NCBI GenBank assembly: GCA_052401645.1
Contig: CP198939.1
Span: forward strand, 1,227,651 to 1,291,650
DNA length: 64,000 nucleotides
Origin: Arsenophonus sp.
GTDB taxonomy: Bacteria > Pseudomonadota > Gammaproteobacteria > Enterobacterales > Enterobacteriaceae
Direction of reading: 5' to 3'
The notes under the pieces: model-generated
What the model saw: the letters and a program-made list of their open reading frames with translations, nothing else
What the model was told of the DNA's origin: nothing
Database searches by the model: none
Shown here: one piece after another, positions 2,759 through 63,658 of the stretch
How positions within the stretch are numbered: the first letter of the stretch is position 1
How the letters are laid out: every line of letters starts with the position of its first letter
Position numbers and translations under genes: made by a program

Positions 2759-2805
2759 AAATATAAAAATAGTATATAAATTTCTTATTTACTATTTTTA
2801 TATTT
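2759..2805. repeat. perfect 16-bp stem with a 15-nt loop
   Basis: 2759-2774 (aaatataaaaatagta) is the exact reverse complement of 2790-2805 (tactatttttatattt). Confidence 0.9.
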
Positions 2806-5800
2806 ATTTATAATAGGTTTATTAATTTAAACAATAAACAGCAAATATATTATTTATAAAAAATGTATTGGTTAAATTAATATTTAAAATATAGTACGAA
2901 ATTAATTTGTATAATTATATACATCGAAATATAACATGCGTTGATATATAACTTTTTTTTATTAGAAATAAACAAATAAAAAACTAGCTATTCGCTAGTA
3001 TTAGCATTAATTAGTATTAGAATTCAATTCAAATAAAAATAAAAGTAATATTCAGATTCTTGCAAAAATAAAATAAATCTTAAATAGTAGTTAGATCACC
3101 ATAATGGTTCTGAACCATAGTGGTATCTAAAATAAAACATACTGACTGATAACGATAATTATTACCATAGTTTTTCAAAAAACTAAAATATTTATGAGAT
3201 AATTAAACTATAGTGAACAATCTATTTAAAATAACTATCTAAAATAGATATATATAAGATTAAGATATAGAATAAATAGAAGTACAAAATATATAGATAT
3301 ATTTTACTGTAAATGTTAATAAATATCATTAGGATAATTTATTTATTTATATTTTAGCGTTTTTATATGAAAATTTATCAAAAAATAATAATATAATGTT
3401 TACGTAGTATTTATTTAATAGAAAATTACTAATTAAACACTAAAAATACAAAGTATTTAATTAAAATTATTAAAAAAAATTTGACTAATTATTATTATAG
3501 ATTATAAACTAAAATATCTAATAATCTGATGTAAAAATTCGTTTTCTTAAAAAATGCTTTTTACATATCATTCATAATTACAAATAAAAATGATTATTAG
3601 ACTCATAATATTGTTATAAAATAGTTAAGATATATTTTTTACTTTCTATTTATTAAATAATAAATTTACATATTTAAATTTAAAAAACTATTTTAATAAA
3701 CTAATTACTTTCTGATAAAAGTGTTAAAATATGAATATTTTATAAGTGTATTAAATATATTTAAAATTAAATAATTGGCGGATTAGGATTATTTTATATT
3801 TTTAAAGAAAAAACTCTAATTATTATTAAATAAGAGAAAATAGAAAACTTTAAATTAATTTATTAAGTTTTTAATAAAAATATTAATAATTGACTTATAT
3901 TAACTTTTAAAACTAGAAAAAATAAAAAAAGATATCTTAGAATACACAGTCTATATTGTAATATTAATTGAAATTATTAAAATATAAATAATTTATATAC
4001 TATTATTTTAACAAGTACTATTTTTTATCAGATGAATTAATAACTCTATTCAAAATAGAGAACATTTTCTATTAACCAAAATAATATGGATAAATGAAAA
4101 CAAAATGTTTATCAAATAGATATAACACTTAACTAATATAAATCTTAAGTAATAAATATTATATAAAATTTACTATAAATATATCGATCTAGAATCAATG
4201 ATATTAAGTATTAATTAATACTTTTTGAGCTATAAAAGAAATTATTATCTCGATTGTTTTAATTTATTAATTATTTTATTGATATATCATTAATATATAT
4301 TTACTATATAATAAATAATTTATAAAAATCAATTATTAATAAAAGAAATATAGATTATATTCTAAATTTATATTTTTTATTATTATAACGCTATTAATAT
4401 TTTAAATATCTAAATAATGATAATTTTAATACCTATTAGTTAAAAACTATCAATCATATTATAATACAGAAGTTAAATAAGATATATTTAAATGAAAATA
4501 ATTTTATTATTATATAAACTAATGATTATTAATATTATATTTAATAATCTTTAATGTTTTATTAAAAAATTAACAATTCTTATACTATATAATTACTATA
4601 TAATTATACAGTATTTAATGATATTAATAAAACTTGTTAAAATAATATTAGTATACTTTAAAACACATTTATATGAATTTTGATAACATACTAATAAATT
4701 AAGATTTTTAATATTTTAAAACATAAAAGTTATTTGATAGATGAATTAATATATAAAATATCTTTATTATTATTTAAATTGTATTAATTAATAAAAGATT
4801 TATTGTTTTAAATTTAATGTTTAATATCTTTTTTTATTAAAATGATTATTTTAAAATATCTAATACATAATCTCTATTATCAAAGATAAGATATCTTATC
4901 ATATTTTATTTCATTTTTGAATATTGATTAATAATATTTATTTCAAATATAGTTTTTGATTTTTATCACTGATTTTTGATATAACTATTATTAATAGTAA
5001 TTCTTTATCTAGTTAAAAAAAATAATTAATTTTCTGTATCAAAAGAAAGAATTTAAGTTTTGTTAATTGAATAAATATTATTATATTTTACTAATAAAAT
5101 ATCATTTTTATTTTACAAATAACAGTAACTATATTTTGCATGATAAATTATCTGTTATATTATTTATTTTTTGGTGCTTAACTTGATATTAAAATGTTTG
5201 TTATTTATTAACTTTATCAAATATAAAAAATTATATTTATCTAAATTTAATTTATATATATTAATAATTAAACAGTTTTATGATTGATAATATTTACTAA
5301 TATATCTTTTAATTAATATCTTTTATATCTTTAATATTTTTAATTAAAGTACTATATAGATCTTCTTAGTATTTAGATTTTATAAGAAAATAGAATATAA
5401 TCAATGATCTTATTGCTTATAGATTTAATGATTAGTAAAGTTTTAATTTATTGATTTCATAAAACAATAAATAATATTTTTTTATTTATAGCTAAAGTCT
5501 TACTAATAGTTTATTTTATATGTTTTTACATTGTGTATTATATAAACAACAAAGTTAAAATTTAACTAAATTGTAAAAATTAAAATATAAAATATGGTTA
5601 TATTATGTTTTATTTTGCGATTAACAAATTTTATTATAGATGTATTTTAATTTTAAAAGAAGTTTTTCATTACAGATCATCATCTTCAATAATCTTATTC
5701 TCTCGAATAAATAATTTATTATGAATTGTTTAAGTAAAAATAATCGAAACGATAATAAAAATTATTTATAAATCATCTTAGTATAAGATACTTTATATAT

Positions 5801-6648
5801 TAAAAATTAATACTATATTTTATAAAATATTAAACCTCTATAAAATATAGATAAAAAAATATAATATAGATGACTAAATAAAATATTTTTTATTAATATA
5901 TATTAATTAGATAAAATTTTAAAATAAATTAACTAATAACCTAAATGACGTTATTAAAAAAAATTGATTAAAAATAAATAAAATAATATGATTAATATAT
6001 TATATTGAATAATATTTATTTATTTTTAATAAATAAATAAAGTTATTAATCTATATTAATAGAATATATAGAAAAGATAATTAAATTTTTATAATTAATT
6101 ATGTTTATGTTATCAACACCAATATAATAGCGTTCTATGTTAAATGAATTTTATAATATGAATTATGAATATATAGTTAAGAAGATATATAAAAAATATT
6201 TTAAATTCTAGTAAAATACTGAATCACTAGATTTAGAGTTTAAATATAAAATCTACTTAGAATAATTTTTCTAGAAAATAACTTAAAAAAATAAGAATTT
6301 ATTTAAAATATTGGATAATTTATTTAAAAATAAAATAATCATTATTTAGATATATAACTATTTTCATATTACATTATAAGATTTAATTATAGTTACTTTA
6401 TAAAGATAATTTTATATATAGTATATTTTAGTTTAAAACATTTTGCTAAATTTAATTTATATATAAGCTATAATTATTCAATTTATATCTTATTTAAATT
6501 TTAAAAAATCAAAGTTTTTATGAAAAATCAAATGATAAATCAATATAAATAGAATTTTTTATAAAAAATAAAATATAATTAACTAATAAATAAAATAAAA
6601 TTAAAAGTTTATTTACCTTTTTCTGCTTTCGAATTTATCCATTAAAGA

Positions 6649-6705
6649 TATATAATTCTATTTATATAAAAAAATATTATTTTTTATAATAAATAGAATT
6701 ATATA
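6649..6705. repeat. 57-nt near-perfect palindrome (17-bp outer stem, 3-nt internal mismatch, 8-bp inner stem)
   Basis: Symmetric about 6677. Pairs 6649-6665/6689-6705 and 6669-6676/6678-6685 all match; only 6666-6668/6686-6688 mismatch. Confidence 0.9.
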
Positions 6706-61377: not shown

Positions 61378-61433
61378 TAATATAAAATATTAGTATTATT
61401 AATACTTTTATGGTAAAGTTAAAAAATAAACTT

Positions 61434-61805
61434 GGGGCTGATTATGGATTCGACGAAATTTATAAAACCCAAAGGTGCATGCCGAGGTGCGGTTGGCCTC
61501 GTAAAAAACCGCAAAAAATAGTCGCAAAAGACGATAATAACTACGCACTGGCAGCTTAAAACCTGAACAGAGCCCCTTTTTACCTAAACTATGCTCTTAA
61601 GTTGGTCAAAGAGTGGTCAAACATATATAAAATAAAAGAGATCGCGTGAATACCTAACCTGTGGTTGAAGCGTTAAATTTAATCAGGTTAGTCTGTTAGC
61701 AGTGTGTCTATTCACGGCTAATTGATGAATGTAAAGATCAGACTAAGCATGTAGTACCTAGGATATAGTGATTTTCGGACGTGGGTTCAACTCCCACCAG
61801 CTCCA
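61434..61805 (+). ncRNA. ssrA: tmRNA (SsrA)
   Basis: 5' GGGGCTGATTATGGATTCGACG..., the tRNA-like 3' end GGACGTGGGTTCAACTCCCACCAGCTCCA, and the interior all align to E. coli ssrA. The tag reading frame at 61524-61559 (GCA AAA GAC GAT AAT AAC TAC GCA CTG GCA GCT TAA) encodes AKDDNNYALAA. The gene is a sharp G+C island in AT-rich surroundings. The terminal CCA is not encoded; the next bases are gaaa. Confidence 0.97.
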
Positions 61806-63609
61806 GAAATTTTCTGTTATCAACATAAGTAATAACTTTAAAAAAACAAAATCATAAAAATTAACTTAACATAAATATATTAAAATAATCTTGTAAATAT
61901 TTTCAAAAAATATATATATGTATTTAAAATTTAAAATATTTAATTAAATACTATAATTATTAATTAAGATTAAATCTTATATCTATAAAATAGAGATGTT
62001 ATACAAACTTAAAACACTAAATATATAATAACTTTATTTGAAATAATATCTTATTACCATAAGAAATTAAAAAAAATTTTTAATATATTAATAAAAAAAA
62101 TAAAAAATATTTCTAAATACTTTTCCTATACCTTCAAAATTATAAAAGATAACTTTTGTTTTTATTATATAATATTATTTTTTGATAAATATAACTATAA
62201 TAATAAATTATAAGTAAAATTTACTTTTTATATTATAATTTACTTAATACGATTTTATAATCGATACTAAAATTTCAAAAATAATTTTTAATTTCATAAA
62301 TATTTTATTTTTACATTATAATTTAATCTTCTTTCTTGAATGCAAAATATTTAATAAAATATTATATGAAAATTAAATAATATATATTTTATCAACTTTT
62401 TAGTAAAAAGGATTTTTGTTAAACAACACTTTATTATTTAAAAATATTTTTTGCTAAATAAATATTTAAATACATAAGACGATTAGATTTAAAAATTTTA
62501 AAAAATATTAAAAATATATTTTAAAATATTAAAAGATAGAAAATTTAAAAAGTTATTAACTATTATAGAAAAATCTAAAATGTTTTTTCTTTCCTTAATT
62601 AAAAATATTAATTAATATAATGTTACAATTTATATTTCTATACAAATTTAATGTGATAGATTATAAAATCAAATTATATATTATTTAAATTAAAGAATTA
62701 TCTTAAAGTTAAGAAAATTAACTTAAAATTTATAATTCCAATATTTAAATTATAAAATTAATTAAATAATTTTATCTAGTTTATATTAGATAATATATAT
62801 AAAATTGTTAATATGTTATCAATTGATAATTGATAATAATTTATATTTTTTAACAATTCTAATCACATAAATTTAAGGTAAATATTTCATCATATTGACT
62901 AGATACATAATATCAATTACATAAAGATTACGTCCATATATACTAATATTGAATAAATATATAAATATTTTTTATTAACATCAATTATTAATAATTTTTA
63001 TAAAATTGATAATACAAAAGATACACTCTCAATTTTTCTATAATAATTCATTTTGAATATAATATTAGTAATAAGTTTATAAACACAACTCAATTTAAAT
63101 ATTTTAGAATATATAAATAAAATTAAATAAACAAAAATTTTTATCAATCAAATATCCTCATATAATGTATTAAATAAATGATTCAATTATAAAACATAAT
63201 TGATTTTCTAAATTCTTTTTATAATATAATTTTTAGATTAGTAAGATTTTTTTATAATTCTTTTTATTATTAAATAATTAATAGTAAGTAAATATTTACT
63301 TACTTATACTGAATAACTTTTCAGAAAAAAATAAAATTAGATAAAAAATGTTATTTTTTAGTTTATATATTATATAATTTAAAATTGAATATTTTATTTA
63401 ATTTATATTATATAAGTATAAATTAGATTAATTTAAAACTTTTATAAAACTAAAATACTTTAATTTATGATATTTTAATCATCTTTATATAAATATTATA
63501 TATTAATTTTATTATTAAATAAATAAAAAAAATTTTTTTAACTATCAAAATAAATATGAAATTATTATTGTAATTTATTGTTATTCTATATATTGTAGTG
63601 TTTAGTTTT

Positions 63610-63658
63610 TTATTAATATTAAAATATAAATTAATTATTTATATTTTAATATTAATAA
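63610..63658. repeat. perfect 22-bp inverted repeat with a 5-nt loop (49-nt A/T hairpin)
   Basis: Checked base by base: 63610-63631 (ttattaatattaaaatataaat) is the exact reverse complement of 63637-63658. Confidence 0.95.

Follow-up and report, generated by a model that had tools for sequence, protein, structure and literature searches.

Quasipalindrome template-switch mutation, in the model of Ripley (1982) and in the thyA and lacZ QP5/QP6 reporters of Escherichia coli studied by the Lovett laboratory, changes several positions in one arm of an imperfect inverted repeat simultaneously, with the new sequence complementing the other arm exactly and perfecting the repeat (PMC6357072, PMC7202029). 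In E. coli this switching is RecA-independent, becomes more frequent when recB or dnaB is mutated and is kept down by the SOS response (PMC6357072). Proteobacterial genomes are enriched in perfect inverted repeats, the more so the longer the arms, and template switching has been given as the reason (Lavi et al. 2018, PMC5941160); it reportedly both gives rise to hairpins and preserves them (Mönttinen and Löytynoja 2022, PMC8794818). This article concerns a 64-kb stretch of DNA (the window) in the chromosome of an Arsenophonus symbiont (~2.04 Mb, 19% guanine + cytosine, G+C), in which the spacers between genes carry a large excess of long, perfect hairpins rich in adenine and thymine (A/T). Quasipalindrome template-switch mutation probably makes these hairpins continually, with neutral decay removing them, and the case is a new, unusually clear instance of a known mutational process rather than a new kind of element. 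Literature searches brought up no paper about these genomes.

A long hairpin was defined as a maximal perfect inverted repeat with a stem of at least 15 bp and a loop of at most 17 nt, and an exhaustive scan returned 12 in the window, 11 of them in the spacers (37.9 kb of the window, 12.2–12.3% G+C). Over the whole window, stems of at least 11, 13, 15 and 17 bp numbered 54, 18, 12 and 5, against means of 12–16, 1.8–2.4, 0.30–0.36 and 0.04 in dinucleotide-preserving shuffles (200–2,000-nt blocks), none of which held more than three stems of at least 15 bp. The spacers by themselves gave 50, 16, 11 and 4 for the same classes, compared with ~15, 2.4, 0.3–0.45 and 0.05–0.15 in Markov simulations of order 1, 3 and 5, and mirror repeats, which have an equal chance probability, numbered 23, 1, 0 and 0. 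Long perfect palindromes are ~30 times commoner in the spacers than chance predicts, and stems of 9–10 bp occur close to the expected number, so the excess forms a separate tail of long perfect stems. Among the 50 spacer hairpins with stems of 11 bp or more, 36 have loops of 0–6 nt, where a flat distribution would give ~19. Related genomes also exceed expectation, with 17/7/4 observed against 5.6/0.67/0.13 expected in a sister species (‘Arsenophonus sp. ER-QJ5-MAG3’, CM125795.1; a farther relative is ‘ET-YP4-MAG3’) and 15/8/2 against 7.5/1.25/0.2 in the related genome L007. The excess is confirmed as real and highly significant.

A preliminary description of the window, compiled by eye, had listed 12 long hairpins, of which 11 were reproduced exactly in start and stem length; the entry at 6649 has the 17-bp stem given for it, but with a loop of 23 nt and not the 17 nt or less that had been reported. 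Its estimate of about one stem of at least 15 bp by chance was slightly generous next to the 0.3–0.45 simulated, and the shuffled controls it had proposed give at most 0.45 against the 11–12 observed. Its placement of all hairpins in spacers holds for its own list and fails for the window, where three of the 54 hairpins of at least 11 bp lie inside genes (suhB, purL and the fimbrial usher); the list had missed the 17-bp palindrome in suhB. The shorter examples were found again at 12441, 21070, 21300, 42151, 44922, 45588, 59166 and 63283, and one placed at 42767 in fact starts at 42757.

It is most improbable that composition or low complexity in 12%-G+C DNA produced the excess as an artefact, or that it arose during assembly from fold-back or chimeric reads. 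Chance complementarity is common in A/T-only sequence and some hairpins are simple (T10A10 at 59098), yet neither shuffles in 200-nt blocks nor Markov models up to order 5 approach the observed number of long stems, mirror repeats of that length are absent and the loops are skewed short. As to assembly, Logan short-read contigs from run SRR34985942 match the window without a single difference across 14.5, 20.5 and 7.2 kb (42 kb in all), five other assemblies have the same hairpins, and each long hairpin within reach of the other strain assemblies is found in them (the close relatives are six assemblies, CP198934 to CP198938 and JBQMSC01). Because independent short-read contigs and other assemblies reproduce the hairpins, an assembly artefact, which the preliminary description had raised as a way to refute the excess, is excluded, and the control tests have effectively refuted the artefact explanation as a whole.

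The most direct evidence for the origin of the hairpins comes from comparison of strains, which the preliminary description had proposed as a way of catching an imperfect repeat turned perfect. At 43316–43357 the window, CP198935, CP198936 and two Logan assemblies all read ATAAAAA-GTTTG-TTTATTATT A AATAATAAA-TATT-TTTTTAT, whereas the left arm in CP198938 reads ATAAAAA-AATA-TTTATTATT, with GTTTG replaced by AATA, the exact complement of TATT. This replacement of a 5-nt bubble by 4 nt extends a stem of 9 bp to a perfect 20 bp through four changed columns within 5 nt (43323–43327), in one arm only and in CP198938 only, whose other differences from the window come to 15 substitutions in 20 kb (0.07%). 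Across all four changes, 20 nt of the new arm form an exact reverse complement of the opposite arm as it stood beforehand (mirror and complement controls, 8 and 11 nt), and the predicted DNA fold of the site is −13.1 kcal/mol (z = −6.4), compared with −5.2 kcal/mol (z = −0.5) for the imperfect allele. Since CP198935 is the outgroup of the strains by pairwise distance, the perfect 20-bp allele is derived, and on this alignment the change in CP198938 reads as a direct template-switch event.

Paired changes at other hairpins tell of the same transfer from arm to arm. At 7519, CP198934 (strains 0.6% apart) carries one additional T in the left arm, matched by one additional A where the right arm pairs with it, lengthening the perfect stem from 15 to 16 bp; as 4-nt runs change length between strains in only ~0.5–1% of cases, two matching independent indels are very unlikely (~1e-5 to 1e-4 per hairpin). 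Between species, a paired 1-bp indel occupies pairing positions of the two arms at 17057, and at 30027 one pair differs on both sides, being A:T in the window and C:G in the sister species. A single extra T in CP198934 makes the 26-bp stem of the quasipalindrome at 6649 perfect. Cumulative GC skew declines steadily over the window and nearly all genes at 8–45 kb lie on the − strand, for which reasons the − strand is probably the leading strand; the one polarised event, in which the left arm was converted, would fit leading-strand synthesis if it is (n = 1).

A palindrome in a gene offers a further case, a fixed one. The 17-bp palindrome in suhB covers the codons for K-A-I-Q-W-I-V-N-P-L-D-G-L, and the window and the sister species have AAA GCC ATC CAA TGG ATT where L007 has AAA GAT ATT CAG TGG GTT and E. 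coli has CAG GAT GTT CAA TGG GTT (site sequences AAGCCATC in the window, AAGATATT in L007 and CAGGATGTT in E. coli). The GAT-to-GCC and ATT-to-ATC changes amount to three AT-to-GC changes within 6 nt, counter to the strong AT bias, and by them the left arm AAGCCATC became the exact complement of GATGGCTT, which holds the conserved Asp-Gly codons and two further bases. Judged from these alignments, the palindrome is derived in this lineage. As a separate matter, the metal-binding motif encoded at 11461–11505 is W-V-I-D-P-L-D-G in E. coli, W-I-V-N-P-L-D-G in the window and W-V-I-N-P-L-D-G in L007, and the replacement of the first aspartate by asparagine in both Arsenophonus lineages raises the question of whether phosphatase activity is retained.

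Bubble replacement and paired indels and substitutions indicate that arm was copied from arm and not when or by which enzyme, and the same signature could come from an arm-homogenising process without a replication template switch, such as repair of mismatches in an extruded cruciform or hairpin off the opposite arm, intrastrand gene conversion or fold-back priming in break repair. The A/T-only palindromes with short loops do fold stably as single strands (−10 to −15 kcal/mol). This alternative is nonetheless unlikely, as the experimentally established enterobacterial route to mutations of this type is RecA-independent template switching during replication (PMC6357072), recombination-based conversion is improbable in a genome without recO and recN, and there is no clear inverted duplication made de novo. 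The ‘small inverted duplications’ suggested by the preliminary description are not needed. Their sole candidate was the hairpin at 12898, whose loop and right arm belong to a 60-bp stretch missing from the sister species; the 10-bp direct repeat AATAAATTAT on both sides of that stretch makes it look like a deletion in the sister species, and a de novo inverted duplication there was rejected.

Turnover could be followed against the sister species, which was aligned end to end with window positions 8386–30156 (~21.6–21.8 kb) and differs by 2.7% substitutions in genes and 7.2% in spacers (the spacers of L007 do not align with the window, so it supplies no outgroup for the spacer hairpins). In the aligned part, 13 spacer hairpins of at least 12 bp were counted in each species, with only ~4 perfect in both; most of those that are perfect in the window have imperfect counterparts in the sister species, and the 17 that the sister species has of at least 11 bp are mostly imperfect in the window. 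Differences fall on one arm at several loci (left/right: 12374, 0/5; 21837, 2/0; 22989, 4/0), and at 13040, where the sister species has the perfect palindrome, a 3-bp indel, a 1-bp indel and three substitutions separate the two. For the 26 spacer hairpins with stems of 12 bp or more that are perfect in one species or the other, differences in the arms amount to 8.9% events per column, and the spacer background is 8.3%. Had perfect ancestral stems only decayed, the figure would be 4.1%, half the background, because the species that is still perfect would contribute no changes; this corresponds to 29.2 expected events, against 63 observed (Poisson P = 4e-8). Arms that change at the background rate are not under purifying selection, and arm differences beyond the decay-only expectation mean that perfection is derived or that loss is faster than background; either way, the standing crop needs replenishing.

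The spacers are themselves past saturation. The G+C content of the window is 19.4%, with 21–35% in genes and 10–14% in the long stretches between them, and its gene content is enterobacterial in the order of E. coli, with spacers in the slots where E. coli has recO, recN, rseABC and iscU-iscX. Searches by tblastn with E. coli recO, recN, rseABC, iscU/iscA/hscBA/fdx, iscR and trmJ returned nothing at E < 0.1 in the expected spacer positions. Spacers in the slots of lost genes without a tblastn match are best read as dead genes eroded past recognition; their sequence seems to have been randomised down to 12% G+C while the DNA itself stayed in place, an uncommon outcome in bacteria that would account for the 2-Mb, low-density genome. 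Given that no trace of the lost isc, rse, recO and recN genes remains, ancestral palindromes must be gone as well and hairpins must keep being made. It is for this reason very improbable that the hairpins are relics of ancestral G+C-containing palindromes (terminators or REP-like elements) whose pairing was kept through G-to-A and C-to-T changes. Symmetric GC-to-AT decay keeps pairing in principle and a few hairpins are identical in both species (e.g., 21070), but perfect hairpins are lost at the spacer rate over 7% divergence, in spacers that have no homology to the genes they replaced, and with loss so fast relative to complete spacer erosion the relics would have vanished long ago. Stems of 15–22 bp also exceed the typical length of terminator stems, and a new hairpin arose within the species (CP198938).

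The hairpins are likely mutational by-products and not functional elements. The preliminary description had considered selection for terminators or cruciform insulators, and selection might also keep hairpins as RNA-stability elements or as cruciform or protein-binding sites; paired changes that preserve a stem are expected from compensatory evolution too, and the related genome L023 (Gillettellia) has a smaller hairpin excess that is perhaps partly made up of terminators. Against this, the arms change at the neutral rate, most hairpins are private to one species and, of the 51 in spacers, two fall no more than 100 nt from the 3′ end of a gene (2.1 expected) and three no more than 300 nt (5.4 expected). 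G+C content is 5.1% in the arms and 12.3% in the spacers, where selection for stable stems would have raised it in the arms, the sequences all differ without a common motif, and a one-step change of four columns in a strain 0.07% diverged cannot be stepwise compensation. Selective maintenance as functional elements is therefore improbable. Intrinsic terminators were rejected on their lack of 3′-end placement and on arms that are G+C-poor rather than G+C-rich, and a selectively maintained structured element on the background rate of arm change and on the sharing of ~4 in 13 hairpins by species 7% apart. A dispersed palindromic repeat family (REP/BIME, RPE or MITE-like) was likewise rejected, there being no shared consensus. 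The statement in the preliminary description that no two hairpins share sequence was upheld, in that the longest exact string common to two different hairpins is 13 nt, where random spacer segments of the same lengths average 14.4. No second copy of the 17–22-nt arms at 11462, 21837, 58106 and 63610 was found at up to two mismatches, a search that is uninformative for short A/T arms since random matches are plentiful.

In the account by quasipalindrome template switching, the spacers are the remains of dead genes that have drifted to 12% G+C and evolve neutrally, and in DNA so rich in A/T, where two neighbouring positions are complementary ~39% of the time, short imperfect inverted repeats abound everywhere. 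During replication the growing 3′ end would at times leave its template, pair with a nearby complementary arm on the nascent strand or across the fork, copy a few to a few dozen bases and then return. The copied arm would be the exact reverse complement of the other, such that one event could perfect an imperfect repeat or transfer a change from one arm to the other. Point mutations and indels would erode the hairpins at the ordinary spacer rate, and the standing crop would reflect a balance of birth and death. The copying would be placed at the replication fork by analogy with quasipalindrome mutagenesis in E. coli. The central suggestion of the preliminary description, that something creates perfect hairpins here with template switching as the first candidate, gains support from the CP198938 event, the paired indels and the suhB palindrome. 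Its appeal to recO and recN is not supported; tblastn agrees that both are absent from their syntenic slots, but nothing in the E. coli literature consulted links them to this class of mutation.

Several points weigh against this account. The fork mechanism and the role of lost repair genes are carried over from work in E. coli, and the low G+C content of the arms is not predicted by the template-switch model. There is one unambiguous multi-nucleotide perfecting event, and its perfect allele occurs in a single assembly (CP198938.1). The excess of arm differences over decay could equally come from hairpins acting as mutation hot spots, and mutation clusters show no visible enrichment in hairpin arms compared with other spacer sequence. 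A generic scan of window-versus-sister mutation clusters for templates within 80 nt gave 7 inverted matches, compared with 4 mirror, 2 direct and 1 complement among 525 alleles, a signal too weak to serve as evidence, and loop inversion, a possible but not obligatory outcome of switching, was seen in none of the small sample of seven orthologous hairpin loci.

Hairpin births would make up ~0.3–1% of all mutational events. At balance, 11 hairpins of ~32 paired positions each are lost at 352u, with u the event rate per site, against 37,900u in total for the 37.9 kb, from which births come to ~0.9% of events, and the strain data hold one clear event among ~330 variant clusters. It is conceivable, if doubtful, that in these Arsenophonus symbionts template switching makes up a lineage-specific class of mutation that is major in quantity. 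To our knowledge, a share of ~0.3–1% is well above those reported for other genomes; in studies of RNA genes and great-ape genomes, such events reportedly form a very small share of mutations. Two causes of hyperactive switching are proposed. The extreme A/T richness would multiply the inverted microhomologies able to prime a switch, a complementarity of ~0.39 rather than 0.25 making a 6-nt inverted microhomology ~14 times more frequent by calculation. Functions that suppress switching in E. coli (RecBCD, the SOS response and translesion polymerases) may also have been lost or weakened, which would possibly raise the switch rate further; 3′ exonucleases are also among the functions that suppress template switching. 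Were template switching such a major class, it would shape the decay of dead genes, standard models would misread its clustered changes as independent substitutions and coding sequence would occasionally be rewritten against the AT bias, as in suhB.

With the E. coli reporters, also in an enterobacterium, the event at 43316–43357 in CP198938 shares simultaneous changes in one arm and a new sequence that complements the other arm exactly and perfects the repeat; unlike the engineered reversions, it is a natural polymorphism, set among dozens of standing hairpins per 38 kb of neutral DNA. Like the repeats of Lavi et al. 2018 (PMC5941160), those in the window are over-represented, increasingly with arm length, and are put down to the perfecting of imperfect repeats, whereas the earlier repeats, from E. 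coli relatives, were more conserved than expected and those in the window turn over neutrally, are mostly private to one species and have longer stems (15–26 bp) in non-coding, A/T-saturated junk DNA. One-step creation or perfecting of stems, single events that look like compensatory changes and clusters of mutations put down to inverted copying nearby have been described by Mönttinen and Löytynoja 2022 (PMC8794818) and Walker et al. 2021 (PMC7954356) in RNA genes and great-ape genomes; the window differs in the estimated share of events (~0.3–1%) and in products without evident function. The hairpins resemble Rho-independent terminators and REP-type palindromes of enterobacteria as short-loop inverted repeats between genes and depart from them in that the stems are not rich in G+C, do not follow stop codons, belong to no common sequence family and are not conserved.

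The window provides a clean natural example of a process mostly studied through engineered reporters. Because the DNA bearing the hairpins is neutral junk, their births and deaths can be counted free of selection, and several closely related complete genomes are on hand to polarise events. Long perfect hairpins in the A/T-rich spacers of symbionts or organelles call for evidence before they are taken as terminators or regulatory elements, and clustered or seemingly compensatory substitutions near inverted repeats can be single events, which affects divergence estimates and covariation tests for RNA structure. The suhB case suggests that the process can put multi-nucleotide changes that raise G+C into genes despite strong AT pressure. 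Coordinates are collected in Table 1.

Table 1. Hairpins and other features of the window, by position.
Positions	Feature	Stem (bp)	Loop (nt)	Remarks
2759–2805	Perfect spacer hairpin	16	15
6649–6705	Perfect outer stem	17	23	Overall 26-bp quasipalindrome with one-base bulge and 6-nt loop
7519–7549	Perfect hairpin	15	1
11462–11498	Perfect palindrome	17		Within suhB
12374–12407	Perfect palindrome	17	0
12441–12469	Perfect hairpin	14	1	Imperfect in sister species
12898–12931	Perfect hairpin	14	6
13040–13084	Imperfect palindrome			12-bp stem at 13050; sister ortholog a perfect 21-bp palindrome
17057–17084	Hairpin	11		15-bp stem in sister species
17186–17217	Perfect hairpin	15	2	One arm mismatch in sister species
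21070–21098	Perfect hairpin	13	3	Among the few identical in sister species
21837–21873	Perfect hairpin	18	1
22989–23024	Perfect hairpin	16	4
24338–24369	Perfect hairpin	13	6	Within purL
30027–30055	Imperfect hairpin			Perfect 13-bp stem in sister species
32179–32207	Perfect hairpin	14	1
33051–33080	Perfect palindrome	15	0
43316–43357	Quasipalindrome	7 + 9		Stems flank bubble GTTTG opposite TATT
43586–43617	Perfect hairpin	15	2
45450–45483	Perfect hairpin	15	4
46198–46235	Perfect hairpin	13	12
58106–58147	Perfect hairpin	19	4	DNA fold −14.8 kcal/mol
59098–59126	T10/A10 palindrome			T/C and run-length polymorphism; perfect 14-bp stem in CP198935 and CP198936
63610–63658	Longest perfect hairpin	22	5	A/T only; DNA fold −15.3 kcal/mol
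1233–8656	iscU-iscA-hscBA-fdx-iscX slot			7.4 kb (~3.8 kb in lost genes)
35131–35971	recO slot			841 nt (gene 729)
40529–44020	rseCBA slot			3,492 nt (~2.3 kb in lost genes)
57740–59529	recN slot			1,790 nt (gene 1,662)
6565–6591	Strain indel			27 bp absent from CP198934
8047	Strain indel			138 bp extra in CP198934
13990–14043	Strain indel			54 bp absent from CP198935
18472–20094 (−)	nadE			Between glyA and purL
48844–53406 (+)	Chaperone-usher fimbrial operon			Four genes
61434–61808 (+)	Transfer-messenger RNA (tmRNA)

The recO and recN slots are close in length to the lost genes, and the rse and isc slots are 1.5–2 times longer. Indels of 27–138 bp separate the strains within spacers, some of them bounded by short direct repeats. 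Between the window and CP198934 (5672–26925), length polymorphism of A/T homopolymers rises from 0.1% of runs of 3 nt to 1% at 4, 4% at 5, 9% at 6 and ~20% at 7–8 nt, a steep climb with run length from which slippage accounts for a large share of strain differences.

The genes of the window include serS, iscS, suhB, glyA, nadE, purL, tadA, acpS-pdxJ, era-rnc-lepB-lepA, rpoE, a chaperone-usher fimbrial operon, ung, grpE, nadK, bamE, an rnfH-like gene, ratA, smpB and the gene for tmRNA. The fimbrial operon (a PapD-like chaperone, a 796-aa usher and two unassigned open reading frames) is apparently intact within an otherwise heavily decayed genome, is conserved in all strains and has the highest G+C content of the window (~32%). 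The nadE product is the 540-aa glutamine-dependent form with CN-hydrolase and NAD-synthase domains, and its best matches outside Arsenophonus in a genome scan were from Ca. Gillettellia (61%), a Coxiella-like endosymbiont (51%) and SAR86 (48%). The tmRNA is intact, scoring 222 bits against Rfam RF00023, and has the tag peptide AKDDNNYALAA.

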